DNA from: a virus
Lineage: Duplodnaviria > Caudoviricetes
Virus record (IMG/VR): IMGVR_UViG_3300033521_000004
Span: 1,144 to 65,143 of that record
Length of the DNA: 64,000 nucleotides
Direction: 5' to 3' (one strand)
Each line of letters begins with the position of its first letter. Position 1 is the first letter of the stretch. The translations under genes were made by a program, and so were the position numbers. Below are positions 10,783-62,457 of the stretch, piece after piece. The notes under the pieces are model-generated. The model made no database searches. It was given only the letters and a program-made list of their open reading frames with translations, and was not told where the DNA came from.

Positions 10783-10809
10783 AGTATCAGCGAGCGTGCC
10801 CTATTTGAC
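10783..10809 (-). promoter_or_regulatory. Late promoter copy 1
   Basis: Minus strand GTCAAATAG-N12-GATACT. Confidence 0.7.
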
Positions 10810-10812
10810 TGT

Positions 10813-11235
10813 TCAATCGGGCTTGGGGCCGACGCCAATGGTCACGTCCAGATCGCGCTCGAACTCTTCGACCATGTCGATCAGAAGTTTCTTAGCCTTG
10901 CTCACGTCAATGTCCTTGCCAAACTTGTTCTTGGCATAGGCCACGATTTCAGCCTTGGTCATGCGCTCGATGGGCTTGTTGAACGAGGCCGGGTCAATGA
11001 TCACGGTGTCGCCGTCCTCGTCCACGACCTTAATGTCCTCTGGCACATCCACGCGGGCTTGGTCGTCCTCGTTTAGCAGCATCCATTGATCGGGGTAGCG
11101 CGTCAGGATCTTGGCCTGCGATTCGGTCACTTCTTGGATGTCGCCATATCCGTTCCAAGTAAGCCCAGAGCGGGCCACATTGTCATGGGCCGACGGCTTA
11201 TTGCCGACGTATTGGACTTGCACGAGCTGGGTCAT
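10813..11235 (-). CDS. Capsid-cluster protein with C-terminal HeH/Rho-N-like motif
   Basis: 140 aa; IERMTKAEIVAYAKNKFGKDID...KKLLIDMV. Confidence 0.55.
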   Translation of the reverse strand: MTQLVQVQYVGNKPSAHDNVARSGLTWNGYGDIQEVTESQAKILTRYPDQWMLLNEDDQARVDVPEDIKVVDEDGDTVIIDPASFNKPIERMTKAEIVAYAKNKFGKDIDVSKAKKLLIDMVEEFERDLDVTIGVGPKPD

Positions 11236-11252
11236 TGGTATTCCTTTGGTAC

Positions 11253-11285
11253 AAAAAAACAGGGCAGCACGAAGCCGCCCTGTTT
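11253..11285 (-). terminator. Rho-independent terminator after the capsid genes
   Basis: Minus strand ACAGGGCGGC-TTCG-TGCTGCCCTGT followed by a T run. Confidence 0.75.
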
Positions 11286-11311
11286 ACTCACTCACCGGGA
11301 GTCAGGGGCAA

Positions 11312-11719
11312 TTACTTGCCCTTGAACTCGTAGGTGGTCACCACGTCGAGCTGGCCAGTTGCCGCACCGCCGCCGATGGTGGCAGTGATGTAGGCGTCAT
11401 AAGCCAAGACGATCGGGGCCACGGCGCCTTCGCGGGTAGCGGCAGCGGAGACAGTCGAGGTAGCGGCCAGCAGGGCAGCAGCGCCACCGCCAGCTTGGCC
11501 ATCGACATATTCAAAACCCAGCGACACAGTGGTGGCTGCGCCGAGGGCGGCGTTGACCATCTTGATGTCGTAGATTTTGGTGCCGGCATACAGCTTGTTC
11601 AGGCGAACCTTGTCAGCGATAGCGGCAGCAGCCAGCGTCACATAACCGTGAGCGTTGGCAAGGGGGCAATCGCCGCTGTACTGAACGTCTTGCAGCGAGG
11701 GGGCATTGATAGTTGCCAT
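11312..11719 (-). CDS. Capsid decoration / cement protein
   Basis: 135 aa, Ala/Gly-rich beta protein directly downstream of the major capsid gene. Confidence 0.6.
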   Translation of the reverse strand: MATINAPSLQDVQYSGDCPLANAHGYVTLAAAAIADKVRLNKLYAGTKIYDIKMVNAALGAATTVSLGFEYVDGQAGGGAAALLAATSTVSAAATREGAVAPIVLAYDAYITATIGGGAATGQLDVVTTYEFKGK

Positions 11720-11769
11720 GTTTGATTCTCCAAAAAAGTTTCGTCAGAGAGGGGCCGAAGCCCCACTCA

Positions 11770-14041: not shown

Positions 14042-14132
14042 TCACTTCACTCCACTTATCGCGTTGGTTGCGGAAATCCATCAAGGCGGGCCAATAACCC
14101 ATGGCGGGGAATACTGCCTATCAGGTATGCCG

Positions 14133-14159
14133 AGTATCTAACTGCCCGCGCTATTTGAC
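14133..14159 (-). promoter_or_regulatory. Late promoter copy 2 (scaffold-capsid operon)
   Basis: GTCAAATAG-N12-GATACT, just downstream of the terminator at 14180-14205. Confidence 0.75.
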
Positions 14160-14179: not shown

Positions 14180-14205
14180 AAAAAAAAGACCCGCCGAAGC
14201 GGGTC
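14180..14205 (-). terminator. Rho-independent terminator
   Basis: Minus strand GACCCGC-TTCG-GCGGGTC followed by T8. Confidence 0.85.
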
Positions 14206-14230: not shown

Positions 14231-14620
14231 TCAAGACAATCGGCGCAACTTGTAGATGGTGCGAAAGTACAGCATCTCGACTTCGTCAATCAGGTTTTGC
14301 AATGGGGTTTCATCCTTGGGCACGGCTGTGTAACGGGTAACCCGGATCCACTTTTGCTGGCTGCGCAGGACTTCAATAATGGGGGCGCCTGAGTTGTTGG
14401 CTACAAGCGGCACATCGAGGATGCAATCGAAACATCCTTGGTAGCCTTCAACGAACGTATCGGCCAGATCGCCAATGGCGTTGTAGAAATCACCCAGCGC
14501 CATGTGTTTCGCATACGACCCCGGGCCTTGAACTTTCAAGTGCTCGCGGTGCGCAACCTCGCGGGCCAGCAACAGCGTGCCTGCGAGGATGCCTGCGTTT
14601 TTGTGATCGGCCATGCTCAA
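14231..14620 (-). CDS. Ferritin/Dps-like four-helix protein (DUF5856-like)
   Basis: AHREHL...SYAKHMALGDFYNAIGDLADTFVEGYQG...LIDEVEMLY..YKL. Confidence 0.55.
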   Translation of the reverse strand: MSMADHKNAGILAGTLLLAREVAHREHLKVQGPGSYAKHMALGDFYNAIGDLADTFVEGYQGCFDCILDVPLVANNSGAPIIEVLRSQQKWIRVTRYTAVPKDETPLQNLIDEVEMLYFRTIYKLRRLS

Positions 14621-14889
14621 TACTCGGCAATGATGCCGGTTGCAGCCGTGCCGGTGGCCCAGACGCGCTTCACGCGCATCATGTGTCGGCCAGCGGCCAT
14701 GGTCGGATAAGTCACCACCGTGCCATCGAACATGGTTACCTTGAGCGCCCCGGCCACGCTGATATACAGCGCGAGGGTGAACTCGGGCAGATCGGTGGCG
14801 TCATTCGGGGTGACGGCCACAGCTCCGGTGATTGGGCTGGCCAGTACCAGCGCCTTACCGGTATGCCGCGACTTGATGTTGGTGGACAT
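14617..14889 (-). CDS. Head spike base protein (RcGTA Rcc01079-like)
   Basis: AVAVTPNDATDLP...ALYISVAGALKVTM.DG..VTY....G...RVKRVWATGTAATGI matches the family pattern as I recall it. Confidence 0.7.
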   Translation of the reverse strand: MSTNIKSRHTGKALVLASPITGAVAVTPNDATDLPEFTLALYISVAGALKVTMFDGTVVTYPTMAAGRHMMRVKRVWATGTAATGIIAEY

Positions 14890-14914: not shown

Positions 14915-14941
14915 AGTGTTGCAGATCCGGTGCTATTTGAT
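14915..14941 (-). promoter_or_regulatory. Late promoter copy 3
   Basis: ATCAAATAG-N12-AACACT in the intergenic gap before the spike-base gene. Confidence 0.55.
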
Positions 14942-14944
14942 TTC

Positions 14945-15556
14945 CTATGGCCACTCGGATGCTGTCAGAAGCATGAGAATGCGTTTGCGCTCTTCGCCTG
15001 CCTCGGCCGCAACCCGCGCGGCGTAGTCCTCGAAGTCAAAGCTCCAGCCCGCGCTAAGGCTTGGCATCTCGCGCAGCATGGGCCGGAACATGGGCACTTC
15101 AATGATCCGGTCGTTCTCGGTCTTGACCATGAACGTGCGGGCCAGCTTCTTCTCCTGCCGCTCCAGCTCGGTCTTGCCGGATGGGGGTGCCTTGGCTGCG
15201 GCCTCGATGATGTCGATCAGGCCCGGGGTGAACGGGTCGTACTCCTTGCCGTCGATGACCACCTTCTGCAACCGCTCGGCCACCCGGTCGGAGTCGTAGG
15301 CGCGGTCGTCCGAATTGCGGCTGGTGCGCTCTAGGTAGTGCGGCCGGCCACCGCCAAGACCGTCGCCCTGCTTGACCTCGTACTGGGTCAGCGGCAGGTA
15401 GTGTGGCCACATCAGCAAGGCGCCCGGGATCGAGCGCCACAGCACGCCGGCCGCGTCGGTTAGCTCGCCTCCAGACTCGTCATAGACGTGCCACTTCCCA
15501 TCGACCAGAATCTTTTGGCCGACGAGGATTTCATAGATTTGGTCTTCAACCGCCAT
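14945..15556 (-). CDS. Hypothetical protein in the head-fibre module
   Basis: 203 aa ORF with phage-like codon usage; no motif recognised. Confidence 0.55.
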   Translation of the reverse strand: MAVEDQIYEILVGQKILVDGKWHVYDESGGELTDAAGVLWRSIPGALLMWPHYLPLTQYEVKQGDGLGGGRPHYLERTSRNSDDRAYDSDRVAERLQKVVIDGKEYDPFTPGLIDIIEAAAKAPPSGKTELERQEKKLARTFMVKTENDRIIEVPMFRPMLREMPSLSAGWSFDFEDYAARVAAEAGEERKRILMLLTASEWP

Positions 15557-18011: not shown

Positions 18012-18173
18012 TTATTCGGTAGGCAGGTCAATCACTACGGGCTGATTTCCTTCAACCTGAACCCAGTAGAGGTAAGCCAGAAAATCTGCATCGTCGGGAG
18101 ACTGGCACGGAGCCACCACTTTCCCATCGGAAACTCGGACGACCTCGCCGGTAGAGAGGGTTATTTCGTACAT
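18012..18173 (-). CDS. 53-aa fibre-associated chaperone-like protein (not in the ORF track)
   Basis: MYEITLSTGEVVRVSDGKVVAPCQSPDDADFLAYLYWVQVEGNQPVVIDLPTE; TGATG overlap with the upstream stop. Confidence 0.55.
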   Translation of the reverse strand: MYEITLSTGEVVRVSDGKVVAPCQSPDDADFLAYLYWVQVEGNQPVVIDLPTE

Positions 18174-26015: not shown

Positions 26016-26191
26016 TTCTCGTTAAGCGGCATCGTAGTTACTACGCGCAACCCAGCGATACACGCCGCCACAACAATGCCGCTGACTGCGTGCATCTTCG
26101 GATCAGTAATCAGATCGAGTAAACCCTGCGCGGCAGATAGCGCCGCCAGAATCATTGCAAACCACATCGTTTTTGATTTCAGGTACTGCAT
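26012..26191 (-). CDS. Holin (2 TM, pinholin candidate)
   Basis: MQYLKSKTMWFAMILAALSAAQGLLDLITDPKMHAVSGIVVAACIAGLRVVTTMPLNEK; ATGA overlap with the endolysin; the longer 172-aa call in the ORF track looks artefactual. Confidence 0.75.
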   Translation of the reverse strand: MQYLKSKTMWFAMILAALSAAQGLLDLITDPKMHAVSGIVVAACIAGLRVVTTMPLNEK

Positions 26192-26204
26192 GCTGCTACT
26201 GCCT

Positions 26205-26340
26205 TCAAAAAAAATTTCGGGACTCCGATTTTGCAAATTTCGGGAGGGTGGGCCCGTGTATGCAACCGCCCGCCCCCGCCCGTTTTGGCCTCCCCCCCGG
26301 GGGGTGGGGGGTCGGTGTGGCGATGGTAGGGGGGAGGGGG
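26205..26340. other. Non-coding G/C-run tract in the late leader (candidate pac or structural element)
   Basis: AAATTTCGGGA twice (26212, 26235), TTTGCAAA palindrome, C7G6 and several G5-G6 runs. Confidence 0.45.
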
Positions 26341-46191: not shown

Positions 46192-46199
46192 GTAATCAG

Positions 46200-46250: not shown

Positions 46251-46263
46251 AAATCAAAGACTT

Positions 46264-49500: not shown

Positions 49501-52500
49501 CAGGCCGAGGAATCCTTTGACGTGCTGGTAGAACTCCTTGAGCCACTGCACTGCCCGAGACACCCACGAGCCGCGTGCCTCGTACCGGCCGGAGACGATG
49601 CGCGTGGCATTCACCGCCCAGAACTCCGACGGGCTGTAAAGCTGGTAGTGCTGGTCGTAGGTCAGCGTGCCGTCGTTGAAGGCCTTGGCCACCGCCTTCG
49701 TTGCCTCTTGGTTGCCCATGGAGGCCTCCAGCATGGCCCGCATGGCCGCTTTGGTGGCCGGTGTGGCCTTGCGGTAGGTGGCGTCCCATTGGCGCTGCCA
49801 CTCGCGCAGCACGCCACCCTGAACCATGTGCGGCATCATCTGCTCGACGTGGTGCAGGATTTCGTGCACGGCCGTGTTGCCGTTCTCGTCCAGATTGGCC
49901 GCAAACAGCTTCATGACGCGGCTGATCGGGTTGTAGTTGCCGCGTGAGGTCAGGTCGCTCTTGACGCTGATCGAGTAGCCGAGGTCATTGGCCAAGTGCG
50001 GGTTCTGATCCAGCAGCCACTTGGCAAACTCGGCCTGATTGCGCGGCACCAAGCCGTCTGCCACGCCGCGCATCAACTGGGCGACCACCCAGTCAGCACC
50101 GCGCCGACGGCCGCGCTCGACCTCGGCAATCTTGCGGTCGTCGGCCTGATCGTTGAGCATGCGGGTGATTTCCCGCACGCCAAAGACGTACTCGGCCTCG
50201 GTGATCTTGCCCGCGTCGAGCTTGCGCTCCAGCGAATTGAGTTTTCCTCGTGCGTTGACGCGAACGGAATCCGGCAGACCGGCAAACGCATAGGACGGGC
50301 TGACCTTGAGGTCGTTCAAGACTTGAGGCTTGTTCTGCCCCAGCATCTCGCGGGCCTGCTCTTGGTGAGTAAGCGCCACCAGCGTCTCTTGCCGTCCGGT
50401 GATCAGGTAGTCGATGGCCTTGGCCGCGTCTTCCCCGTAGAACATCGACGCCACCATGACGCTGCCGCGCTTGTAGAAGTCGCCTTGCAGCACGTCGGTG
50501 AATTGCTTGTCTAGGAAGTAGGTGCCGCCCTCTTTCTTGGACGACGGCACGATGAAGTTGTAGCGGTTGCTCTGCTTGGTGATGCGCAGCACGCCGTCTT
50601 CGGTGCCCACCGTGCCCTTGAAGTTGTCGAGGAACTTCACAACCTCGGCCCCGGTCTTGATGCCGACGGGCTGGTTCTTCATTTCCTTGTCGAAGTCGAA
50701 CTGGCGATTCATCAGCACGCCTTGGCCGGTTGTGCCGTCCTTGCGCGTGTAGGTGATGATCTGCCCCGGGAACTTGGCATACCCGGCCAAGATGTTGCCG
50801 GTCACCATCCACCGCTTCTCGCGGCGGGCCGTGGTGCCCTTGTCAAAGACGGCCAGAACCGAGATGTATTCGAGCTGCTGCGTCTCTGGGTTGAACCAGT
50901 TGATCTGGTCTTCGCGGGCCAGTTGGTACTTGGTGCCGAGCTGGCTGAAAGTCAGGTTCAGGCTCTTGGCGTCACCGTTGGCCAGCGCAATCGTCATCTT
51001 CCAGTCAGACCCGGCCGCAGGGTTGGCCGTGCGCTTGGCCGGTTTGATGTCGGTGATAACGCCGTAGACGATCATGCCCAGCTTGTCCTTGATCGAGACG
51101 GACATGCCGATTTGGTAGGTTTCCAGCGCGGCCTTGGTGTTGCCCAAGATCATGTTGAGCAGGTTCTTTTGCGCCTCAATCTGGAGATGGTCGGCGTTTG
51201 GCTGCGCTTCCATCTTGGCAATGCGCTCCTTGGCCCATGGAATCATGCGATCGCGCAGATCCTCGATGTTCTCACGCGCAATTTGGTGGGCGCTCTTGCC
51301 GTCCAGACTCTCTTCGATCAGGCCATTGACCTCCTTGGACGAATACGGCTTGACAGTGCGCTTGACATTGACCTGTTCCATGTTTGCCGGAGCGGCAAAG
51401 ATCGAGGGGTCGCCCTTGTCCTCGGTGATCTGGCGGGTGTTCAGCGTCTCGGCGTCAAGGTCAACGGCCTTGGCTTCGAGCTTGTTGGTGCCCATCGTGT
51501 TCTCGCGCTCCAGCAGCTCGTTGTAGCGGTCGATCAGATCCTTGTAGATTTCCTCCTGCTGCTTGATGGGCAGGATCGGCACATAGCCGGTGAACTTGCG
51601 AATGTCGTCTTCGGTGGCTTCGGACGAATCCTCGACCAGCGAAATGATCTTGTTGCCACCGATGGCTTCGAGCACGTCGGGGTTGTCGCGCAGATACTCC
51701 TGCACCACTTGGCCACCGTAGTCGTTCATGAAGTCCACCACGCCCTCGGCCGTCACGCTGGACTTGCGCGAAGCGGTGGTGTTGGCGTTCAAGCTGGCCA
51801 TCTTCTTGAGCAGCACGGCTGCGGGCCGCATCTCGGCGGGAACGTCGGCCATCATCTGCGAGTAGGCCGGGGCGATCACTTGGCCAGTGCGGTGCACACG
51901 GCCCAGCATCTGCATGTGCGTGTCGATGTTCTTCTCGGCCTGCACGATGATCATGTGCCGCTTCTTCTTGTCCTTGACCTTGGAAGATGCGTGCAGCGAC
52001 AGGCCAGTGGATCCGGCCTGATTCAGGATGATCACGTCGATGTCGCCGTTGTTGAATCCGCGCACCGCGTTGACCCGCTGCCGGATGTTGGCGCTGCGGC
52101 TGGTGATTTTCGGGCCTGCGGAAGACGCCCCTCTAGCCTTGCTAAACCCATCCAGTTCGCTTTGGTAATTCTTATCTACTTCCGCCGTTTCCCCTGTCGG
52201 GAATGACATGGGTGGACTGGAGACAAACAACTCGCCAGTCTTCAAGTTCTTGGCCACGAAATAGAGATTCCCGTTCTTCTCCTTCGACTCCTTCACACGG
52301 CCGACGATTACAGCGCGGTTGCTTCCAGAATTGTCATCAGCAATCACTTTCCCAACATCGAAATCATTGCCTTGCATCTGGTATGGCTTGGCGTTCGCGT
52401 AGGCCGAATACCACTCCGTCTTTTGCTCTCCCTGCTCTAGGGTCTTGAAGCTGAATTTTGTTTCTTCCCTAGCCTCTCCTACGCCAACCTCAGAATAGTT

Positions 52501-55500
52501 GAGCGTGATGGTGCGGCCCGTGATTTCGTCGGTCTTGTAGCCTGCCTTGCGCAGCTCGTTGTGCATGTAGTCGATGGGGCTGATCGGAGCCGAGCCAAAC
52601 CCAGAATTGGCAATCTCTTGGCCAATCTCGTTGAACATATTGACCAGACCGGGGCCAAGCTCCTGATCGGTCAGGCGGCGCTGGTTCTTCTGGCCACGGG
52701 CGTCCTTGATGGTCACCCAGCGTTGCTTCTCCAAGTACCGCTGGTACAGGTCGGCAAAGGTCAGGGCCACCGGGTCGCCCACATTCAGGCCCATCTCTTC
52801 CGCGTAGGTCTGGAGGAACGAACCCATGGTGTTCGAGACGGTCATCACCACCTTCTCGCCTGCTTTCAGGCGCTCGATGGCGTGGCGCACGCTGTCTTGC
52901 ACCTTGAGCGAAAGCAGCATCTGGTCGATCAGGTTGTGCATGACCGAGCCGAAGTTCGACCCTTGGATGGTGGCCTTTTCGCCGCCCATCTCCTTGACCA
53001 TCGCGCCCTCTTTGTCCATCTCGGACTGGATTTCCTTGACGGCCTTTTCCTTGGCCCGGGAGAAGGCCAGCACGCGGCGCATGGCTTTGGCCATGTTCTC
53101 GGCCGTCTGCTTGTCCACCGCTGTCTCGACCGTGTCGTAGGAGACGCCGGCAAAGGTGCGCTCGCGCCGGATGTACTGGCCATCCGTGGTCAGCATGTTG
53201 GCCACCACTTGCTGCATGGGCACGCCGCCGGTCTTGATGGCCTCGGCCAACTGGCTGAGTTTGTCCACAGCCAGCTTCATGTTGGTGCTGGAGTACAGAT
53301 CCATCACGTCGGGCCGCTTGGCGTAGGTGGCCGACGAGAAGAAGGTGCCGAATGCACGATCAACCAGCCCGCGCACGAATGCAGCGCGGCCTGTTTGGTC
53401 AGCAGACCCCTCTGCTTCGCGTTGCTCACTGCTGCGTGCTTTGTTGCGTTGAGGCCCAGCGCCGCCAGCGTTGTGCGACTCATCGAAGATCATGAAGTTG
53501 GACGAGCCGAACTGCTGCACAAACTTCATGCGGTCGGTCACCTTGCCCTTGACCGTCTGCAACTGGCTGTAAGTGGTGAAGATGACCTTGTAGTCGCCCA
53601 AGCTCTCGCCTTCCATCATGTCGCGGAAGAGCTTGTTCAGCGGCTCGCCAGACTTGGGCGCCTTGAGCGTCAGGTTGTTCTCGGTGACCTCGCCATTGAC
53701 CGTGCGCAGCAGGGTGTAGGGTATCGACTCCGAGCCGTTGGTGATCAGAATTTTGGGCTTGGCCGTGTCCAGCCCCAGCTCGTCGGTCATGCCGATGTCG
53801 TCCAAGTCCCGAATCATGTCCGAGTACAAGTTCGGCTTCTCGGTGACGAAGATGGGCGTCTTGTCGTTGACGATGGCGTACTTGATCATGGCCGCGACCA
53901 CCCGGCCCTTACCGATACCGGTCTGGTCGCCAATGATGAACCCCCGGCCCTCTTCGGCGTTCTTGATGGCCAGCGCCAGCGCGTCTACCTGCTCGGCCGA
54001 GAAGTTGGTGCGTACCGTCTCGATGTCCATGCCAAGCCGATCTGCAACGTACTCGTCCAGATTGCCAAGCGTGTCCTCGATCTTCTGGAGCGATGCCTCG
54101 ATGGCACCGGCCATGGCCCGGGGCACGAGCGTGCCCACGGATGCAGCTTGAGAGTGCGGAGCGTAGGCGACTTGGCCGGATGTTTCCTGCTCTTCGCCCC
54201 GGCGGTCGTTCAGTCCAGACTCGACGCGCTCACCAGCGACAACGCTTGTTCCACCCAGTCGCTCAGTTCCAGCTCCAGTGCGTCCTTGAGTTCCTGTGCC
54301 GGCTCGCCCGCTGTCGCCGGGAACGGATGCTTCGCCGGCATTGCCAGATTGAGGTTTGTCCGTAGATTGAGGTTGTTGAGTACCAGTGCCTGTCCCGCTT
54401 CCTCGATTTCCTCCGGTTCCGGTACGTCCAGATTCCGGCACGCTTGCATCGTTTCCACTGCGCCCGCTTTGTTCGCCAGTTCCTGCACCCGATCCGCTAG
54501 GGCTTCGATCCACTCCCGCTCCGTCACTTGCCCCGGGTTGATCCGTACCGCTATCAGTTCCAGCGGTGCTGCCATCCCCTTCGGTGCCCACGCTACGAGT
54601 GCCATTCAGTTTCTCCTTGAGTTCGTCATACGAGCCGATCACCTTGGGCAGATCGGCGGCGGGAAGATCACGGGACGACTTGCCGCGCCCCTCGATGACG
54701 ATGACATCCACCGGGTAGCTCGCGCCTTGTTTGGCGTAAAGAGAGCCATCCACAGTGAAGTGGTCAACGACATTGTAGTTTTGGTACAGGTTGAAGTAAA
54801 ACGCCCGCTTGTTCTTACCGCGATAGTCGCCACGGCGCCCTTCTTCACTGGTCGCGTTCGAGCCGCCGACGATGAGCACGGCGCGGCCGTCGTCCTTCAT
54901 GCTGGCCAGCGCCTTGAATGCGATGGCATGGTCGATTTCGCTGGTCTGATAAAAGGCCGTGCTCGACACTTCGGCGCGGTAGACGATGGTGTCACCGCTG
55001 TCGTTCTTGACGACTCCAAAAGGCGGGTTGGCAATCACCGCATCTACCGGGTAGCCTGAGTGGCGCACGTTCTCCGTGGCCGCGTTTTTGTGCGTCGGGT
55101 CAAAGCCCATCTGGCGCAGCATGGCCGCGCGGGCCAGATTCAGCTCGTTGACAACGGCATTCTTGATGCCGGCGCCGATCAGCAGCATGCCGTTGCCGGC
55201 GGTCGGCTCCAGCACTTTCGTCTTGTTGTTGATGCCCGCCAGCTCCGAGGCCACAAAGGCCAGCGGCACGGGCGTGCTGTAAGCCTGTTCGCGCACGCTG
55301 GTGGACGAGCGCACCGATAGGTTCGGCTGCGCGTTGTACAGCGCCAGCAACCGGTCGTAGATGACCTGTGCGCTGCGGCCCTGCTTGCGACCGGCCTCGA
55401 CCATGTCCCGGGCGGCGATGACAACGGCCGCTTCGATCGTCTCGTCGGCCAGCTTGGCCAACTCGGTGCCGGGGTCAATCTTCTTGCCGATCAGCTCGCC

Positions 55501-58500
55501 AATGCGCTTGCGGGCCTCAATGATGGAGGCGAAGCTGGCGCCGCCAATGAAATCGTCGGCCAGCGCCTTTGCCACCTTGTACCGGCCCTCGGGGTATTGC
55601 AGGTCGATGGCGGTGGCCACCGGCTCTGTCTCGGTCGGCTTGTCTTCCTGCTCCAGCTCGGCCAGTGATTCAACGGCCACCACGTCCTTTTTGCTCGATG
55701 CCGTGCCCTCGGACTGGTACTTACCAGCCATGCCGATGTAGGCGCCCTGCAAGTGGTCGAGCGTGATCTGGTCGGCCGCGTCCTTGCCCAGCTTCTCGCG
55801 GATCGTGGACAACACAAAGCGGGCCGCGTCCTTGAACTTGTAGTAGCCCAGCCGGAAAGCAGCGTCCATGACCTTTGTGAGCACCGGAAGCAGCTTGTGC
55901 TCTTCCTCCGGCACGATGTTCATGCGCGTGCCCTTGCCGAGGATGTCGCCCAGCTCGCCCAGTGCGGCGTCAAGGTCGGCTTGGGCTTTGGCCTTCTTGG
56001 CCTCGGCTTCGGTTTGGGGCGCAGCCTGCGGCGGCTGGGTGCCCCCGGCCCCTTCCTCCGGCGTCCCGCCAGTGGGATCAGGCTGCTTACGTTCCTTGGC
56101 TTCCTTCTCGGTCTTGGGCGGCGCCAGTTCGGCCTTGCGCTTGTTGTCCAGCGCCTCCAGCGCGTCAGCCAGATCGTCCAGCTTCTGCGCTTTCAGGTCG
56201 TCCTTGACGCGCTGCGCTTCCTCGCGCAGCCGTGCAATGGTGCTTGGCACGTCATCGAGCGGCGGCACAAACAGGCGAGTGGCCCGATTCTTGAGCAGCT
56301 TTTGGTACAGCTCCGGGTGCTTGGCCGGATCTACCGCATTCCACAGCTCTTCGCCGTAGCGCCGAATGTTCTCGTCGCTGACATCCTGATTGCCATTGAT
56401 CACCGAGCGCACGACATGGCGCACATGGTTGCTCTCGGCCACCATGTCGCGGGTGTGCTGGATGCTCTTGTCGCGCCAGTTGGCGGCAATATCGACCAGC
56501 GCATCCTTTGGTTTGTACCGGCTATCCTCGCCCAGCGAGGTCACCAGTTGGCGCAGCTCCGGCACCGTCATGGCGTCGAGCTGTTCGCGGGTCACATTGC
56601 GCATGCGGGAGCGGTTGTCCTGCACCTTGCGAATGTTGGCCAGCAGATCGGCTTTGCTGCCGCTCACGTTGGTGTTGAGCAGCTTGGCCAAGGTGACCAA
56701 ATCGTCGCGGCCAAAGCGTTCATGAACCTGCTCGTCGGTGAGCTTGGTAAGGTCAGTGGTCAGAACCCCGGCCGGCACCCGATACGGATCTGAGTGCTGC
56801 TCTTGGAACTGGCCAAGGTTCAGCGTGCCGTAGTCGGTTTCGGGCACTCCCGTTCCTTGCCGTGCTTCTTCTTGCACTGCGGGCACCGGGGCTTCTGGGG
56901 CTTGAGGGGCATTTCTATTTCCTAGTAGGTCTGCAATTTCCTGCTCGGAGAAGCCCATTGAGCGCATTGCTTCCTCTTCGGAGACGTTGCTGGGGGCGCC
57001 GATGTCAGGAATGTCGGAGTCTTGCTCGTTGGTTTCTGTGACGGTCTTTCCGTTCAGGTGCGACAAATACCGCTTGGCAAAGGACGGGTTCAGGACAATC
57101 TCACCTTCGCCAACATTGCCAAGAACGGCATTGCCATCACGAATCGCCTGAATAAGGTCTTGCACAGGAATCGTGAACGTGCCGACAACGCGATCGGGGC
57201 GGCTGGTTGTGCCAAACGACTGATCCCAACCGGACATTCCTGACGTTGGTATTCCTCTTCCGCCGCCGTGCCACATCGACGTGGACATCAACTCTTCGCG
57301 CCCAATCTGGCGCCAGCTCTTGCCAAGGTGATCCTCATTGTCTGCAACGCGGGTCAGCACGACATTGCCGTTGCCGTCCATGTTGAGCGTTCCAGAGCCT
57401 GCAAAAGTCCCGTCGGCCAACGAAATTGACGGAACGCTGGGGTGATTTCCACCAAAGGCTTCGTCGGACAGTCGGCCAATTTCACGCAGTACGGCTTTGG
57501 GGTCTAGCGCATCTTGGGCTGATAGCCCTTCGTATCGTTGCCCTGCGGGGGCACCGACTTCGGCGCCACCGGTGCCGGCCCCTGATTCTTGGCCGATGCC
57601 TGCGGTTTGGCCTGTGTCACTGCCGGCCCCTTGACCGAGTGCAGGCCCATTTGTTTGGTCTTGTTGCTGAGTTTCATTAGAGTTCTCCGGTTGGGTTTGG
57701 TCGAAGCCGTACATCTGACGCAGCTTGGCCACGTCATCGCCAGCCGCTTCAAGCTGGCGCAGTTCATCTTGCTCGGTTGGCGTGAGCGTGCCCGTGGCGT
57801 GCTGGTCGTCGCCTTCGCCAGCTTGCTTGGCTTGCAGCGCCTCGATGCGCGTCTCGGCGAAGTCGCGCACGTCCTGATCGCTGTGCGTCTCGGTAGGGGG
57901 AGGCGTGTTGACCGCCCCGGTGGTCGGCGCATTGATGGCCGGTGCACCAGCTTCCTCGGCCGGTGTGACCGTGGGGCGCCCCGGGATCTGGGTCGCGCCG
58001 CCGGGGGGTGGCATGGTGATCGCGTTGTTGGGATTCATCGAGCGGATAACCTGCTCGTTGATGCCCTCGCGCGTGAACTGGCGGGATTTGATGTCTCCGC
58101 TCAATGCCCGGGCGAACTGATCCTCTGGCATGTGGGCTTGATTCAGGAACTCGACCGCCTTGCCGACGCCCGTAGTGCCAGCACCTTGAATGCCAGACTG
58201 CATGATGGTCTGGACGATGGTGTCCCCGACCTGTTTCAGGTAGTCCTCAAAAGTCGCATTCGGATTGAGGGCCACGCCCTTCGGCATGAACTTGTCCGTG
58301 GCGAACTGGCCGGTGGTTGTCAGAACCTCTCCGGGGATTTCTTTCTTGAGCGCAGACCACAAGAACTTAATGATCTGGTCAGACGGCAATCCTTGTGCGG
58401 CGGCGCGATAAGCCTTGAGCGTGTCGCCCAAACCAAACTTCTCGCCGATGACCTCGAATGCCGCAAAGATGCCCGCGCGGGTGGTGGCCTCTCCGATGCT

Positions 58501-60081
58501 CTGGCCCTTGGCGCGGCCGTCGCTGTACTCTTGGCCAAAGGTCTGCACGGCCATGCCTGCCAGCGGGATTGCCTCGGCCCCTGTCTTGGCGCCAGCGATC
58601 ATGAGCGGCAACTGCTGGATGATGCTGCCGATCGCGCCCTCCAGATTGCGCTCCAGCATTGTTCCGTGGGATCCAATGGCATCTTCCTTGCCGCGCAGGA
58701 ACTCGCTCTTCTCGCGCATCGACTTATTGGCTTCGTCCAGCCCCATCACGTCGGACAGGAACTCGCCGTAACCAGTGATGGCCTTACCCATGCCAAGTCC
58801 ACCCTTGGCCAACCCGCGTGTGAGTGCGTTGTTCAGGCCTGTGTTTGGCGCATTCGGGTCGAAGGCCTGCTTGGTGTCGAAGTCGAATGTCGAGTTCTGC
58901 GCCACGCCCCGGCGCTGCGCGAAGGCAATTTCATTGCCCGGGGCCACGCCTGCTGCGGCTGCGTCTTGGCCAATGCGAGCCGCAAAGCGCGGATCTTCCC
59001 CGGCCGCTGCCAGACGGCCGGCGCGGGACTCGGCGCGGGTGTCCATGCCCAGCATGGTCTTGCCCGGGTTGCTGGCGTCAAACGCTTCGTACTGGCCGGA
59101 GCGCGAGCGGGCGAGCTGGCCAACCCAGCCGGGGATCTTGCCCATGGCCTTGCGTTGGTCTGGCGTGGCCGCGTCCCACTTGGCATTGAACTCGGCCAGC
59201 ACTTCTGGGCGCACCGGCACCTTGCTGTCGGTCGGCAGAGCCTGCGGCCCGGGTTGCCCCTCCATCACCGATTGGCGTGGAGGCGTCAAGGTATCGACGG
59301 TGTCGTCGGTCGTGGGCACGTTCTGGCCATTGTTGGCCAAGAATCGCTGGCGCAGGGCATCCTTTTGGGCGCCAGCGTGCGGTGCAATCCAGTAGTCGAA
59401 ATACGCCGCCTTGGTCTTGGCCTTGTCTTCCGCGCTTAATGCTGCGTACTCGGCCTTGGCTTCCACGTCGGCCCACTTGGGTGCCTTGCCGAGGTCGGCG
59501 CCAGTGCTGGTCTGCTGCGCAGGCGCAGCTCCAACGCGGCCAAGCACATCGCTGACGTAGCTCGAAACCCGCTTGCCGTTGCCGTCGGCTGCATCGTTCT
59601 TCCATGCGCTGCCCTGCCCCGGGTTGACGTTGCCGTCGCCGGAGAAATAGCCCGTGGCAATCTTGGCTGGGTCGTTGCCGAACTTGTCGCCCAGCGACTT
59701 GATGATGCGAATGCCGACGCGCATGTTGTCGTCGGCGTTGTTGATGTCCTCCCCGGACTTGGCGTAGCGCCGGAAGGTGTCGGGCGTGATCTGCATGCCG
59801 CCCCGGGCGCCGTCCACACTGGTGACGGCGTTGGCGCCACCACCGGATTCTTGGCCGTAGATCGCACCGATCACCGGCAGCAGATGCTCGGCACCCTCTT
59901 GCGCGGCCAAGCCTCGCAGGGATTCGGTATCGACAGGCTTGTATTCCTTGACGGGCTGCGCGGCTTTGCGCTCGCGCTCGGTCAGGAGGTCGCCAAACCC
60001 GCCGCCTCCACCGGAGGGGGCTGGAATCGAACCAGTCTTAGAAGTATTGAGAAGATCACCAAAGTTCTGATTCGATTCCAT
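46567..60081 (-). CDS. DarB-like large polyvalent ejection protein (4504 aa)
   Basis: SLT (GQES...GGMQITPDTF); N6-MTase (VLEPTAGNG, IANPPFG); Strawberry-notch-type helicase (GDQTGIGKGR, FDESHN, LGRVHRTGQ); HEILH zincin; PLMRFG domain. Confidence 0.9.
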   Translation of the reverse strand: MESNQNFGDLLNTSKTGSIPAPSGGGGGFGDLLTERERKAAQPVKEYKPVDTESLRGLAAQEGAEHLLPVIGAIYGQESGGGANAVTSVDGARGGMQITPDTFRRYAKSGEDINNADDNMRVGIRIIKSLGDKFGNDPAKIATGYFSGDGNVNPGQGSAWKNDAADGNGKRVSSYVSDVLGRVGAAPAQQTSTGADLGKAPKWADVEAKAEYAALSAEDKAKTKAAYFDYWIAPHAGAQKDALRQRFLANNGQNVPTTDDTVDTLTPPRQSVMEGQPGPQALPTDSKVPVRPEVLAEFNAKWDAATPDQRKAMGKIPGWVGQLARSRSGQYEAFDASNPGKTMLGMDTRAESRAGRLAAAGEDPRFAARIGQDAAAAGVAPGNEIAFAQRRGVAQNSTFDFDTKQAFDPNAPNTGLNNALTRGLAKGGLGMGKAITGYGEFLSDVMGLDEANKSMREKSEFLRGKEDAIGSHGTMLERNLEGAIGSIIQQLPLMIAGAKTGAEAIPLAGMAVQTFGQEYSDGRAKGQSIGEATTRAGIFAAFEVIGEKFGLGDTLKAYRAAAQGLPSDQIIKFLWSALKKEIPGEVLTTTGQFATDKFMPKGVALNPNATFEDYLKQVGDTIVQTIMQSGIQGAGTTGVGKAVEFLNQAHMPEDQFARALSGDIKSRQFTREGINEQVIRSMNPNNAITMPPPGGATQIPGRPTVTPAEEAGAPAINAPTTGAVNTPPPTETHSDQDVRDFAETRIEALQAKQAGEGDDQHATGTLTPTEQDELRQLEAAGDDVAKLRQMYGFDQTQPENSNETQQQDQTNGPALGQGAGSDTGQTAGIGQESGAGTGGAEVGAPAGQRYEGLSAQDALDPKAVLREIGRLSDEAFGGNHPSVPSISLADGTFAGSGTLNMDGNGNVVLTRVADNEDHLGKSWRQIGREELMSTSMWHGGGRGIPTSGMSGWDQSFGTTSRPDRVVGTFTIPVQDLIQAIRDGNAVLGNVGEGEIVLNPSFAKRYLSHLNGKTVTETNEQDSDIPDIGAPSNVSEEEAMRSMGFSEQEIADLLGNRNAPQAPEAPVPAVQEEARQGTGVPETDYGTLNLGQFQEQHSDPYRVPAGVLTTDLTKLTDEQVHERFGRDDLVTLAKLLNTNVSGSKADLLANIRKVQDNRSRMRNVTREQLDAMTVPELRQLVTSLGEDSRYKPKDALVDIAANWRDKSIQHTRDMVAESNHVRHVVRSVINGNQDVSDENIRRYGEELWNAVDPAKHPELYQKLLKNRATRLFVPPLDDVPSTIARLREEAQRVKDDLKAQKLDDLADALEALDNKRKAELAPPKTEKEAKERKQPDPTGGTPEEGAGGTQPPQAAPQTEAEAKKAKAQADLDAALGELGDILGKGTRMNIVPEEEHKLLPVLTKVMDAAFRLGYYKFKDAARFVLSTIREKLGKDAADQITLDHLQGAYIGMAGKYQSEGTASSKKDVVAVESLAELEQEDKPTETEPVATAIDLQYPEGRYKVAKALADDFIGGASFASIIEARKRIGELIGKKIDPGTELAKLADETIEAAVVIAARDMVEAGRKQGRSAQVIYDRLLALYNAQPNLSVRSSTSVREQAYSTPVPLAFVASELAGINNKTKVLEPTAGNGMLLIGAGIKNAVVNELNLARAAMLRQMGFDPTHKNAATENVRHSGYPVDAVIANPPFGVVKNDSGDTIVYRAEVSSTAFYQTSEIDHAIAFKALASMKDDGRAVLIVGGSNATSEEGRRGDYRGKNKRAFYFNLYQNYNVVDHFTVDGSLYAKQGASYPVDVIVIEGRGKSSRDLPAADLPKVIGSYDELKEKLNGTRSVGTEGDGSTAGTDSGTDQPGASDGAGVDRSPSGSGAGTGEQSGRSGNDASVPESGRTGTGGNRGSGTGTGTQQPQSTDKPQSGNAGEASVPGDSGRAGTGTQGRTGAGTERLGGTSVVAGERVESGLNDRRGEEQETSGQVAYAPHSQAASVGTLVPRAMAGAIEASLQKIEDTLGNLDEYVADRLGMDIETVRTNFSAEQVDALALAIKNAEEGRGFIIGDQTGIGKGRVVAAMIKYAIVNDKTPIFVTEKPNLYSDMIRDLDDIGMTDELGLDTAKPKILITNGSESIPYTLLRTVNGEVTENNLTLKAPKSGEPLNKLFRDMMEGESLGDYKVIFTTYSQLQTVKGKVTDRMKFVQQFGSSNFMIFDESHNAGGAGPQRNKARSSEQREAEGSADQTGRAAFVRGLVDRAFGTFFSSATYAKRPDVMDLYSSTNMKLAVDKLSQLAEAIKTGGVPMQQVVANMLTTDGQYIRRERTFAGVSYDTVETAVDKQTAENMAKAMRRVLAFSRAKEKAVKEIQSEMDKEGAMVKEMGGEKATIQGSNFGSVMHNLIDQMLLSLKVQDSVRHAIERLKAGEKVVMTVSNTMGSFLQTYAEEMGLNVGDPVALTFADLYQRYLEKQRWVTIKDARGQKNQRRLTDQELGPGLVNMFNEIGQEIANSGFGSAPISPIDYMHNELRKAGYKTDEITGRTITLNYSEVGVGEAREETKFSFKTLEQGEQKTEWYSAYANAKPYQMQGNDFDVGKVIADDNSGSNRAVIVGRVKESKEKNGNLYFVAKNLKTGELFVSSPPMSFPTGETAEVDKNYQSELDGFSKARGASSAGPKITSRSANIRQRVNAVRGFNNGDIDVIILNQAGSTGLSLHASSKVKDKKKRHMIIVQAEKNIDTHMQMLGRVHRTGQVIAPAYSQMMADVPAEMRPAAVLLKKMASLNANTTASRKSSVTAEGVVDFMNDYGGQVVQEYLRDNPDVLEAIGGNKIISLVEDSSEATEDDIRKFTGYVPILPIKQQEEIYKDLIDRYNELLERENTMGTNKLEAKAVDLDAETLNTRQITEDKGDPSIFAAPANMEQVNVKRTVKPYSSKEVNGLIEESLDGKSAHQIARENIEDLRDRMIPWAKERIAKMEAQPNADHLQIEAQKNLLNMILGNTKAALETYQIGMSVSIKDKLGMIVYGVITDIKPAKRTANPAAGSDWKMTIALANGDAKSLNLTFSQLGTKYQLAREDQINWFNPETQQLEYISVLAVFDKGTTARREKRWMVTGNILAGYAKFPGQIITYTRKDGTTGQGVLMNRQFDFDKEMKNQPVGIKTGAEVVKFLDNFKGTVGTEDGVLRITKQSNRYNFIVPSSKKEGGTYFLDKQFTDVLQGDFYKRGSVMVASMFYGEDAAKAIDYLITGRQETLVALTHQEQAREMLGQNKPQVLNDLKVSPSYAFAGLPDSVRVNARGKLNSLERKLDAGKITEAEYVFGVREITRMLNDQADDRKIAEVERGRRRGADWVVAQLMRGVADGLVPRNQAEFAKWLLDQNPHLANDLGYSISVKSDLTSRGNYNPISRVMKLFAANLDENGNTAVHEILHHVEQMMPHMVQGGVLREWQRQWDATYRKATPATKAAMRAMLEASMGNQEATKAVAKAFNDGTLTYDQHYQLYSPSEFWAVNATRIVSGRYEARGSWVSRAVQWLKEFYQHVKGFLGLSSDAPVLRALKAVIQGEGDLNNGMLVNMDYSQWMGEKGTEQKAEVPNPQDIMAKIKRDAAQFFGNSQSLRTFGWYDRSIATQFHKALKDNDYGKVFGYINAMQNEVSLTSIRPAELAPGILRKVDDFKSAVSTLTLGQRTHKSMQGAASALFAGTLQGATVMEGRVWTTDELRNNFGLDDAGVALYEQARAAIDASLDEVAAAEAFALCQGYVPKQARRQIIENPQHANRVLFGALSKGKKMLQTTLDAAIKSKASQERIDYLTASIAAYTDTEERLKALFGKSRDLKKAGYAPLMRFGPYSLTVQRIDPATGTLAKDPDGKSITEYYRQFETEAEAKKAEERLRIKYAGDDTIRITPGVKSNLTHELYQGLSPETLALFADEVGVDQVMKEFYKNALTERSALKRKLERKGTAGYSEDLPRILANFVTSNGRFAAQRYYMRDLNNAIKYIPNAKGDVRDEAIKLRKFMMNPNDSGAVLSSVMFAHFLGGSVAAAAMNLTQTVTMTGPYLSQFGVGTASVAMAKAVPVAMGQVQITDKDLAKALQRASREGIVEAQEIFHLYSQGAQGVSRQLANLASRVPVVGEKLKQGTEGLRARGEAFLTLWGMMFSVAEKFNRKVAFIAAWNVAIANNERNPYAFAVRAVNETQGIYNKANRPNLARPWGGRAVFTFKQYSIMYIEMQRRMWRDGGAEGKRAVALSLATLILLSGAVGAPFADDIMDLIDTIGQLFFKSDTNMKRNMRRWAHEKFGETWGDLALYGVSAKLPLDFSGRMGMGNLIPGTGALKVSEEGNLTRDLAEAGGPAGSMVESIFKAKEAYSEGNTRKALENLSPKAIKDLMAAADMASTGTAKDSKGRKNMDVTLADAAIKAVGFNPTKIADASRSRAPGMQDAALQKQMESSIVDMWARGIATQDDALSKKAAQRLEDWNKRNPDTPVKINSDQIRSAARQYLTDQNTRILKSTPRELRGRVGLDIAK

Positions 60082-60089
60082 AAGGCTTC

Positions 60090-61217
60090 TTACTGTGAAG
60101 GGATGCCGATGAGGTTGCTAATGCGCGGGTCAAGTGTGCCCGGAGCCGGGTTATTTGACGGCTCTGGTGCTTGCGACTTGCGCAGCTCGTCGTAGAGCTT
60201 TCCAGCATCGTCTGCGAGCTTCTTGGAGTCCTGACCGGGCAGCGCGTTCTTGGCCACATAGTCCATGACAAACGCGGTGCGTGTCTTCTCCTTGGAAGAG
60301 CGCACGGCTTCCCAAGCCAATTCCGGGTTGTTCTTGAACTTGGGCACCTTGGACATGAGCCATTCGGCCGACTGCACATCTGCTGGGCTGTGCATGGAAT
60401 GACGCGCACTGGGGTCGCCTTGGTGCGTTTGCGTGACCGTGCCGGTGGACTTGTTGCCGGCCCAGACGTTTCCGTAGTTGTCGTGGATGAACTGGTACTC
60501 GCCCGTCTTCATCTTGCCCAGCGCCGCTTGCATAGCTTGAACCGGCACAAACTTGGTCACGCCGTCGGACGTGGTGAAGTTGTAGCCGTCGCCTTGCGGG
60601 CCACCGCGCACCGGCGCAATGTCGGTGAATGTCTTGCCGTTGGTGTTTGGCATGATGTCGCTGACCTTGGCAATACGGTTGGCAAAATCAAGCGCACCGG
60701 CCTTATCCTGACGCGAGATGATCTGCGCCAGCGTGCCCAGCACCACGTCACTCTGGCCCTGCGCGGAAAGCTGGCCAGACACTGCGGCCTGCCGAATCTT
60801 CTCTGGCAGGTTGTCCAGATCGGCTTTGGACTGCTGCAATTGGCCTTGCAGCGTGTTGTTCGTGATGGCCTGCTTGGTCGGCAAGTTGGTCTGCTCGTTC
60901 TGCGCGTTGGAAAGACCCACGTCGGCGTTGATGTTCTTGGTCTTGATTTCCGTCGGCTGACGCGCGACCTGACCAGCCAGATCGGTTGTCTCCAAACCAA
61001 TTTTGGTCTTGGCGTTCTCGGTCTGCTGCGGCAGCAGGCTTGTATTGGCCACGTTCTGAGCGTCACGCAACTGGTAGCCGGAGCGTTCTGACTTGGTCTT
61101 GTCGTCCAGCACCGACAGTTCGGCGTCACGCTTGGCCTGCTCGTAGTCGCGCACCTTGCGGCGGTCGCCCTCCTTGAAGTATTCGTCGGCGGCAATAATC
61201 CCGAGTCCGAGGTTCAT
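60090..61217 (-). CDS. Ejection (DNA transfer) protein
   Basis: 375 aa, Gln/Asn-rich helical protein between the gp7-like gene and the giant protein. Confidence 0.6.
   Translation of the reverse strand: MNLGLGIIAADEYFKEGDRRKVRDYEQAKRDAELSVLDDKTKSERSGYQLRDAQNVANTSLLPQQTENAKTKIGLETTDLAGQVARQPTEIKTKNINADVGLSNAQNEQTNLPTKQAITNNTLQGQLQQSKADLDNLPEKIRQAAVSGQLSAQGQSDVVLGTLAQIISRQDKAGALDFANRIAKVSDIMPNTNGKTFTDIAPVRGGPQGDGYNFTTSDGVTKFVPVQAMQAALGKMKTGEYQFIHDNYGNVWAGNKSTGTVTQTHQGDPSARHSMHSPADVQSAEWLMSKVPKFKNNPELAWEAVRSSKEKTRTAFVMDYVAKNALPGQDSKKLADDAGKLYDELRKSQAPEPSNNPAPGTLDPRISNLIGIPSQ
60133..60159 (-). promoter_or_regulatory. Late promoter copy 6, upstream of the giant protein
   Basis: GTCAAATAA-N12-CACACT inside the 3' end of the 375-aa gene. 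Confidence 0.6.
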
Positions 61218-61226
61218 GATGGCTCC

Positions 61227-61928
61227 TTATAGGTCGTAGATGTAGTCGGGATTGCCTTGAACAGAGCCATTGCCACTTAAAGATCCTGCGCCGCCGGTTG
61301 GTTGGAAGTAGGCTGGGCCGGAGTGGTTGAATAGACGATCGGTTACACGTCCGATCGCACCGGCTTGCTGATTGGTTTGCTCCAAACCAAGGCGGGCCAT
61401 AGAAGCGTTGGCTGTCGCAGCCGAGTTTAGGCCGCTAGACGCAGTAGCATCCAGCCCCTTACCAACCCCCAGCGCGGCCGTCTTGCGGGCGTAGGCCGTG
61501 TCTTTGACGTTCTTGCGGGCGAGATTCTGCGCGGTGGCATCGTTGGCCGCTTGGGCCAGATCGAGGCCGACCATACTGGATTGGTAGGCCGCGCTCGACG
61601 GATCCATGCCCGGGGTGCGGGTCAGTCGGTCACGGGCCTTGCCGAACTGGCTGGCCACCGAAGCCGATGCGTCACCGGCCGCGAGCGAGTAGTTCTCCGG
61701 CGAGTCGTAGTTCTGCGCCTCTTGGACAACCTGACGCTCCAGCGGCTCGTAGATTTCCTTGTAGCGGCCCCATTGATCAGCCGCAATCTGCGTCTGCATG
61801 GCGTTGGCGTCGGCCGCTGCATTGTTTGCGCGGCCTGCACCGTGGTCGCCTATGATGGCGCTCGAAATGACGGGCGCTGCAACTGCGCCCACAAGGGCGG
61901 CGGCTCCCGCGCTAAGTCCAAAGGCCAT
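61227..61928 (-). CDS. Ejection protein (P22 gp7-like)
   Basis: Gly/Ala hydrophobic N-terminus MAFGLSAGAAALVGAVAAP, then Gln/Ala helices. Confidence 0.65.
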   Translation of the reverse strand: MAFGLSAGAAALVGAVAAPVISSAIIGDHGAGRANNAAADANAMQTQIAADQWGRYKEIYEPLERQVVQEAQNYDSPENYSLAAGDASASVASQFGKARDRLTRTPGMDPSSAAYQSSMVGLDLAQAANDATAQNLARKNVKDTAYARKTAALGVGKGLDATASSGLNSAATANASMARLGLEQTNQQAGAIGRVTDRLFNHSGPAYFQPTGGAGSLSGNGSVQGNPDYIYDL

Positions 61929-61929
61929 G

Positions 61930-62424
61930 TCAGTCTCCTTCAATCAATCCAGCGCACCACGCATCGTATTCAGCGTAGGAGCGCGTGGTCAGTTCGTCTT
62001 CCAGCACGTCAGGATCTGTCGTGTCTGTGCCGCAGATAGTGAGCCAGCGGGTATCCTCGTGCGCGTACCCTGCCCGCTTGGCCCCGGCGGGGGACTCGAA
62101 TACTTGCGGCGCCTTCAATCGTTGGATGCCGTGCTCGGTGAGAACAGAAATTTCACCAGACAGCAAGATATTGATCTGGCTGTACTTGTGAATCCGCCCG
62201 GTTAGCACCGTGTCCTTGGGGATCAGCAGCTCGCGGCAATAGACGCCACGGGAGAACCGGTGCGTTACCGGCATGTCCACTTGCGGCACGGTGGCCAGAA
62301 CGGCGTCTAGTCGCTCCAGCTTTCCGCGCCAGTCATCCCCTTGCGCCAGCGCCGAAAACGGCCCGAACGGTGCAACCGGGGCCGCGATTAGGTGGTTCAC
62401 GGGCGCAAGAAGGGTAGTCTGCAT
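61930..62424 (-). CDS. Cupin-fold protein
   Basis: HRFSRGVYCRELLIPKDTVLTGRIH...NILLSGEI...PAGAKRAGYAHED. Confidence 0.7.
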   Translation of the reverse strand: MQTTLLAPVNHLIAAPVAPFGPFSALAQGDDWRGKLERLDAVLATVPQVDMPVTHRFSRGVYCRELLIPKDTVLTGRIHKYSQINILLSGEISVLTEHGIQRLKAPQVFESPAGAKRAGYAHEDTRWLTICGTDTTDPDVLEDELTTRSYAEYDAWCAGLIEGD

Positions 62425-62430
62425 CCTTCG

Positions 62431-62457
62431 ATTCTCCCAATCGGGGGGTTATTTGAT
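62431..62457 (-). promoter_or_regulatory. Late promoter copy 7
   Basis: ATCAAATAA-N12-GAGAAT, 6 nt before the cupin ATG. Confidence 0.55.

Follow-up and report, generated by a model that had tools for sequence, protein, structure and literature searches.

A conserved class of putative late promoters with an asymmetric box in place of a -35 element, and a candidate helix-turn-helix activator, in a clade of temperate Betaproteobacteria podophages

Introduction

How does a temperate phage that carries its late genes in several separate blocks switch them on together, when no late regulator of a known family can be recognised in its genome? The question is raised by a 64,000-nucleotide (nt) stretch of viral DNA (hereafter the window), which comprises bases 1144-65143 of the 65,143-bp IMG/VR virus record IMGVR_UViG_3300033521_000004. 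An earlier note, made from the sequence alone, had described seven minus-strand copies of a composite motif in this window, a 9-bp box RTCAAATAR followed by exactly 12 nt and by a hexamer nAnnnT, and had read them as late promoters at which a phage activator redirects the RNA polymerase of the host. The minus strand carries every virion, packaging and lysis gene, and these late genes run from approximately 27.3 kb down to position 1, across the ends of the record, and then from 64 kb to 46.6 kb.

In this work we have analyzed the statistics of the motif, its anatomy and conservation among relatives, the gene blocks that follow it and the proteins that might read it. The seven sites are very probably a class of promoters. 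In the explanation that we favour, which we consider likely, they are activator-dependent late promoters used by the host polymerase without a -35 element, and a 94-amino-acid (aa) predicted helix-turn-helix (HTH) protein, here called P0001, would be the likeliest reader of the box.

Results

Over-representation of the motif

Coordinates, strand and hexamers of the seven sites, as listed by the earlier note, all agreed with the sequence (Table 1). RTCAAATAR occurred eight times in the window, always on the late-gene strand, vs. 0.60 copies expected, and this number was reached in none of 100 shuffles; the version GTCAAATAG, with 5 copies vs. 0.04 expected, ranked first among the over-represented 9-mers of the genome. 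The composite RTCAAATAR-N12-nAnnnT was present in seven copies vs. 0.02 expected, which bears out the exact 12-nt spacing, and the spacers were indeed found to share no sequence. The number seven holds for the composite sites and not for the box alone, of which an eighth exact copy (GTCAAATAG, 26812-26820, minus strand) had been overlooked. No -10-like hexamer follows this eighth box at spacings of 11-14 nt, and the box falls in the P0001 gene, where it corresponds to the codons R-Q-I-A; homologues of the protein read R-D-I-A at this place, so that the box is not conserved, and no recurrent box was found within the P0001 gene of relatives. It is possibly a binding-only site or a chance occurrence.

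Two copies were confirmed to lie inside upstream coding sequence, one (22851) at the 3' end of the large terminase open reading frame (ORF) and the other (60159) at the 3' end of a 375-aa ORF. Two others provide the upstream ORF with its stop codon (26341 and 62449), the first of them through the TAG of the box, which ends a DUF6378 ORF. A codon artefact was nevertheless rejected as the origin of the motif, because stop codons are involved in just these two sites and the orthologous boxes of relatives stand in different coding contexts. A Chi-like or packaging site was also discarded, given the phased second element and the position of the copies at the head of gene blocks.

Anatomy of the sites across the clade

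A box-only scan with the shorter pattern TCRAATWG yielded, after dereplication across the clade, 131 boxes on the late strand and 30 on the opposite strand. A hexamer nAnnnT at exactly N12 followed 107 of the 131 late-strand boxes, whereas any other spacing between 9 and 16 nt accounted for only 1-6 boxes, and the N12 spacing was seen in 2 of the 30 boxes of the opposite strand. When the composite pattern was searched on both strands of ten relatives, scanned whole or in part, 45 matches were obtained on the late strand vs. one on the other strand and one for the reversed control pattern. A weight matrix with a cut-off of 14 bits or more, applied to eight whole genomes, gave 45 matches, all of them on the late strand.

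Several positions that had not been imposed by the search patterns were also constrained. The box was preceded by G or A and followed by C, position -9 of the hexamer was A in around 80% of sites, position -8 was A or C, and the seventh base past the hexamer, where transcription would be expected to start, was a purine in 79% of sites. The resulting clade consensus was RTCRAATWG-N12-nAnAMT. The last base of the box was C at some lysis and giant-gene promoters of relatives, and the box variants were not sorted by genome, A and G at position 3 and A and T at position 7 being mixed in most of them, whereas T1, C2, A4, A5 and T6 of the TCRAATWG core were invariant. Matches to canonical sigma70 promoters in the late region were no commoner than in shuffles. 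Scanning a 14-base version of the motif over the sequence collection returned mostly chance single matches in AT-rich and giant-virus contigs, and a literature search with the box sequences matched primers only.

Conservation and limits of the clade

A search with the portal protein retrieved 80 IMG/VR loci, which were divided by portal identity. The motif was present on the late strand in 52 of the 52 loci whose portal was at least 58% identical (range 58-86%), which together had a single reverse site, whereas the 28 loci whose portal identity was 48% or less were all devoid of it. In about 50 relatives a box, N12 and a hexamer of the CACAAT, GAGAAT or CAGAAT type stood 35-60 nt ahead of the portal ATG, and the 12 bases of the portal-promoter spacer were not conserved among them. 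Orthologous promoters were likewise found upstream of the scaffold, adaptor, ejection and giant genes, while spacers and flanks differed.

Among prophages of the clade, the motif was also detected in that of Herminiimonas sp. CN, which is located on NZ_AVCC01000004.1 (locus L164), and in those of metagenome-assembled genomes of Nitrosomonas, Rhodocyclaceae and Burkholderiaceae; it was not found in the Achromobacter, Enterobacterales and Vibrio relatives. Three of the four strict matches in the 3.4-Mb genome of Herminiimonas sp. CN fell in the prophage, which indicates that the motif does not belong to a host regulon.

Gene blocks behind the seven sites

Each of the seven sites heads a block of late genes, as the earlier note had stated (Table 1). 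PHROG and Pfam matches downstream of the sites identified portal, terminase, endolysin, spanin, major capsid and virion-protein genes, which supports this statement by family for portal, terminase, lysis and capsid; the scaffold, adaptor and ejection labels are based on gene position and not on family matches. Predicted starts lay mostly 15-91 nt ahead of the start codon of the next block. Orthologous sites were located just past the putative winged-HTH (wHTH) gene, that of P0001, for late promoter 1 (G001 and G002-G007), and in corresponding positions for late promoter 4 (G001-G006), late promoter 5 (seven of the seven whole relatives) and late promoter 7 (G001, G002, G004 and G005, with a box ending in C in some).

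An indication of where transcription would begin came from late promoter 6. The ATG of the first ejection-block gene (62424) is the seventh base past the hexamer, that is, the predicted +1 itself. This coincidence was found in seven genomes although the six intervening bases differ, G006 being one base off with only 5 nt in between, and it indicates a conserved leaderless mRNA for the ejection block and gives independent support to the hexamer acting as a -10 element. Taken together, orientation, spacing, the -10 hexamer, the purine at +1, the leaderless ATG, the location behind terminators and at the head of gene blocks and the conservation all agree, at the level of sequence, with what the late-promoter reading of the earlier note predicts.

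Table 1. Putative late promoters, candidate regulators, terminators and other features of the window, with predicted transcription starts (+1).
Feature	Position	Strand	Signal	Predicted +1	Start codon	Context
Late promoter 1	26323-26349	-	box 26341-26349; C-rich 12-nt spacer; hexamer TACCAT (26323-26328)	near 26316	26190 (holin-like ORF)	lysis and terminase block
Late promoter 2	22825-22851	-	hexamer GAGAAT	22818	ATG 22784 (portal)	portal block
Late promoter 3	14915-14941	-	hexamer AACACT; AAGGAG after the start	14908	ATG 14889	two small head-spike or fibre genes (14617-14889, 14231-14620)
Late promoter 4	14133-14159	-	hexamer GATACT	14126	ATG 14041 (scaffold)	scaffold and major capsid block
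Late promoter 5	10783-10809	-	hexamer GATACT; GAGG after the start	near 10776	GTG 10756	adaptor, tail and tail-spike block continuing across the record ends
Late promoter 6	62431-62457	-	hexamer GAGAAT	62424	ATG 62424	three ejection-type genes (61930-62424, 61227-61943, 60090-61217)
Late promoter 7	60133-60159	-	hexamer CACACT	60126	ATG 60081	4504-aa giant virion protein (46567-60081)
Doubtful extra site	7627-7654	-	TCAAATTG, 12-nt spacer, ATGATC (misfits nAnnnT)			ahead of a 103-aa gene (7296-7607)
Candidate late activator P0001	26612-26896	-				94-aa predicted HTH (winged-helix-like) protein
Sigma70-like promoter match	27293-27322	-	TTGCCT, 18-nt spacer, TAGAAT			ahead of the VRR-NUC/wHTH operon
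Intrinsic terminator	14188-14205	-	7-bp GC stem, then T8			ends the head-spike unit directly ahead of late promoter 4
Intrinsic terminator	11257-11285	-	12-bp stem, then T run			after the capsid and 135-aa genes
Bidirectional terminator-like hairpin	46263-46285	both				end of the giant gene (late strand) and of the integrase gene
Integrase	45205-46191
S24-type repressor	35487-36176
Cro-like gene	35195-35431

The leaders of two blocks presented features of their own. The 126-nt leader of late promoter 1 (26190-26322, minus strand) is very rich in C and G, with a C run facing a G run, and a similar leader follows the orthologous lysis promoter in G006; its fold did not surpass those of shuffles (z = 0.35), and the leader showed no clear terminator. 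Between late promoter 4 and the scaffold gene lies an 85-nt leader (14042-14126, minus strand), which is conserved at the nucleotide level in G000-G006 and contains a short upstream ORF (MGYW...) of varying length; neither covariation nor an Rfam match was found for this leader. It may control the translation of the scaffold and capsid genes.

A further word, AGGAAATC, was present in eight minus-strand copies vs. 0.35 expected (for example at 14939-14946, 18044-18051, and 23516-23523); the copies lie mostly within coding sequence, and one overlaps the box of late promoter 3.

A predicted 94-aa HTH protein as candidate reader of the box

The P0001 gene is the second of a short operon (VRR-NUC, P0001, DUF6378) that ends at late promoter 1. 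P0001 is the only non-structural ORF kept in each of the seven whole relatives, even in the distant G007, whose early region otherwise differs, and in most loci its gene precedes a late promoter by around 30-900 nt. None of the 33 loci retrieved through P0001 contained a reverse motif site, and those with a portal match all belonged to the same portal clade, each with forward motif sites.

No Pfam family covers P0001. Its AlphaFold2 (AF2) model had a pLDDT of 78, and all neighbour searches led to three-helix or winged HTH folds, the best matches being MarR, ScpB, Z-alpha and sigma region 4 (Z 4-4.9; Foldseek E > 0.6). Weak profile matches were obtained to NsrR, AspA and SlyA, and the Atlas neighbours were all wHTH families. 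The family comprises 143 clusters at 50% identity, none of them named. No match was returned by tblastn of P0001 against cultured phages or by a profile search of the genome contigs with the P0001 alignment.

The sigma70-like match ahead of the operon is possibly the promoter that supplies the activator; it is a consensus match only, of a kind no more frequent than in shuffles. The divergent gap that separates the VRR-NUC/wHTH operon from a plus-strand operon harbors an array of at least 12 copies of TGTTCC/GGAACA (27380-27770), phased by around 10 nt and arranged in two opposed clusters around an AT-rich core, which looks like origin iterons or an operator array.

In one locus, L327 (IMGVR_UViG_3300020176_000005, positions 6880-6915), a P0001 homologue stands behind a late-type promoter of its own (box, N12, CACACT), and its ATG is at the predicted +1, 6 nt past the hexamer. 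This arrangement suggests positive autoregulation and a leaderless message of the candidate activator in that phage.

Search for known regulators

Pfam models of MotA, AsiA, sigma factors and other regulators were searched in six frames over the whole 65-kb record, with E values up to 1 for MotA, AsiA and the sigma regions. The activation domain (PF09114) and the DNA-binding domain (PF09158) of MotA gave no match, although very remote homologues could escape these models, and the co-activator AsiA (PF09010) was not found either. Sigma70_r2 and Sigma70_r4 were without matches, whereas the controls matched in 11-14 of 14 genomes; divergence of the gp55 type could escape detection. The Q antiterminators (PF06530 and PF03589), the Mor family (PF08765) and the Ogr_Delta zinc finger (PF04606) were likewise absent from the six-frame results. 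No match was obtained for the T7-type RNA polymerase (PF00940), but the control genomes gave none either; the bipartite layout with an unconserved spacer speaks against promoters of a T7-type single-subunit polymerase.

Proposed mechanism and alternative explanations

From the motif, its rigid spacing, orientation, conservation and gene context we infer that the sites are active promoters, where transcription starts, that host sigma70 is used and which protein acts as activator. Each late promoter would consist of a sigma70-type -10 element (nAnAMT, -12 to -7) without a -35 element and of a non-palindromic box, (G/A)TC(A/G)AAT(A/T)(G/C/A), at about -33 to -25, 12 bp upstream of the -10, with transcription starting 7 nt past the hexamer. 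The -10 would be bound by the host RNA polymerase holoenzyme, its conserved positions (A-11, A-9, A/C-8, T-7) being those of the housekeeping sigma, and the upstream contact would be supplied by a phage protein bound to the box, presumably P0001 made from the short operon just upstream of late promoter 1. As the phage protein would be needed at the box, the promoters should be silent in the lysogen and fire together once the protein is made; that lysis genes are kept silent in a lysogen would in turn make the promoters require a phage product. The roughly 46-kb late strand would be divided by the seven promoters into seven units: the lysis and terminase genes; the portal with the head fibres; the pair of small head-spike genes; the scaffold with the capsid; the adaptor, tail and spike genes; the three ejection-type genes; and the giant virion protein. 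The redirection of host polymerase by a phage activator, as the earlier note had proposed, is supported by the lack of a recognisable sigma or Q, by the conserved HTH candidate and by the clustering of the motif in the prophage. That P0001 in particular reads the box is an assignment towards which we lean only slightly.

Several observations weigh against this explanation. Position -12 was T in just 21 of 112 sites, so that the -10 is weak by sigma70 standards, and the Pfam models would miss any sigma factor or co-activator that has diverged strongly. The fold matches of P0001 are generic (Z < 5), with sigma region 4 scoring equal to MarR-type proteins, and the co-occurrence of P0001 and the motif is correlative and could be explained by shared clade ancestry. 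Four relatives have no strict-consensus site between the P0001 gene and the portal, only a variant ending in C. Finally, L332 (IMGVR_UViG_3300048088_000128) encodes a partial P0001 homologue (48% identity over 60 residues) without the motif and with a different packaging and head module; from this locus, the P0001 family may read other boxes in other phages.

The same features could be accounted for in other ways. The bipartite layout with a rigid spacer is typical of sigma targets, and an alternative sigma factor, either divergent and phage-encoded or belonging to the host, might read the box as a -35 and nAnAMT as a -10 element. Some alternative sigma factors use short spacers, those of the T4 gp55 type are missed by standard models, and the P0001 model resembles sigma region 4 and MarR-type proteins with equally weak Z values (4.0-4.5). 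We consider this unlikely, given that neither sigma region 2 nor region 4 matched in six frames, that the -10 is conserved at the positions of the housekeeping factor and that 94 aa are too few for a region 2; with a host alternative sigma, moreover, sites would be anticipated in other parts of the host genome, whereas the matches cluster in the prophage. It is similarly improbable that the promoters are real and served by another reader, be it a different phage protein or an activator of the host that is conserved among Betaproteobacteria, with P0001 acting, for example, in excision or replication. The link between P0001 and the box is indeed correlative, and small wHTH proteins are often recombination directionality factors (PMC11963761). 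No further non-structural gene is common to all eight genomes, however, the P0001 gene is far from the integrase gene, which is itself common to just four of the seven relatives, and with a reader from the host alone the lysis genes would be expressed in lysogens. The motif was, moreover, not spread over the genome of the host.

An element acting on the RNA or on the elongating polymerase instead of on initiation, for instance in RNA processing or in the loading of a Q-like antiterminator, would fit the location of all copies on the sense strand of late transcripts and the 126-nt GC-rich leader between the first copy and the lysis genes, as at lambda PR'. It is nonetheless very improbable: there are seven copies per genome instead of one and no Q family match, the conserved second half is a -10 hexamer whose distance is fixed even though the spacer is not conserved, one copy stands immediately behind a strong terminator, an ATG coincides with the predicted +1 of another, and the leader of late promoter 1 folds no better than its shuffles.

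Source phage and other features

The last 100 nt of the record were found again at 17-116, indicating that the assembly is circular or permuted, and the integrase, the S24-type repressor and the Cro-like gene together denote a temperate phage. A megablast search of 17 kb against phages gave no match. The best cultured matches corresponded to Achromobacter phage CF418P1 (44-45% for capsid and portal), whose record is barely annotated, and in a collection of 50,697 records no cultured phage encoded the candidate activator, or exceeded 45% identity in its capsid or portal. An early-operon gene on the plus strand (39748-40269) encodes a protein with a Tad2-like (Thoeris anti-defence) domain. Rfam returned, at the gathering score, a tRNA-like match (46174-46247, plus strand) that overlaps the 3' end of the integrase gene and adjoins the bidirectional terminator-like hairpin; no tRNA was found by ARAGORN, and the match is probably an attP core derived from a host tRNA gene.

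Discussion

The layout described here resembles that of T4 middle promoters, to which the earlier note had already likened it and in which 12 ± 1 bp separate the MotA box from the sigma70 -10 element downstream of it (PMC2988021). Both have a 9-10-bp asymmetric box in place of the -35, in one orientation and in many copies per genome, and the N12 geometry was observed in 107 of the 131 late-strand boxes of the clade. In contrast, the T4 box is (a/t)(a/t)(a/t)TGCTTtA instead of RTCRAATWG, no MotA or AsiA homologue was detected here, and the -10 of our sites is weaker at -12. MotA drives middle genes in T4, whereas late genes of a temperate Betaproteobacteria podophage are concerned here, and MotA is a two-domain protein of 211 aa that works with a co-activator, as compared with a candidate of 94 aa with a single predicted HTH domain. 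The recurrence of the MotA geometry in an unrelated temperate phage without recognisable MotA or AsiA points to convergence of the design.

Other phages provide partial parallels. The late promoters of phage Mu have a -10 but no -35 element and are activated by the small phage HTH protein C together with the host sigma70 holoenzyme (PMC2582627). Mu is also temperate and has several late promoters; however, C binds as a dimer to a 16-bp dyad centred at -43.5, in contrast with the asymmetric 9-bp box near -29, and no Mor-family match was obtained here. The late operons of phage P1 are dispersed, each with a promoter that depends on the phage activator Lpa (PMC8198154). This system, in which host SspA also takes part, is alike in having dispersed late operons with their own activator-dependent promoters devoid of a -35. 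The P1 late-promoter element is a 9-bp inverted repeat nearer the -10. The phage studied here differs from P2/P4, which use Ogr/Delta, in having no Ogr_Delta match, and from lambdoid phages, with a single PR' late promoter and Q, in having seven sites and no Q match.

For a clade known only from metagenomes and prophages, these results provide a complete and testable map of late-gene transcription, and Herminiimonas sp. CN is a cultured lysogen that carries a prophage of the clade. The motif could serve as a practical marker of late operons and prophage boundaries in genomes of Burkholderiales, Nitrosomonadales and Rhodocyclales. The conserved late-promoter class is very probably real, and the variant of the activator-dependent, -35-less type that it represents appears, from the comparisons made here, to be new. 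A new activator family is plausible, and a small unnamed protein family is indicated as a possible new class of late activators. We tentatively suggest, with somewhat less than even confidence, that this hitherto undescribed family of putative HTH proteins of around 90 aa acts clade-wide as a one-protein late activator, which would bind the asymmetric 9-bp box at -33 to -25 and take the place of -35 recognition by host sigma70, with MotA-like geometry and without a co-activator of the AsiA type. If this is true, the P0001 family would control the whole virion and lysis programme, with its conserved leaderless late mRNA, of widespread temperate short-tailed phages of freshwater and soil Betaproteobacteria.

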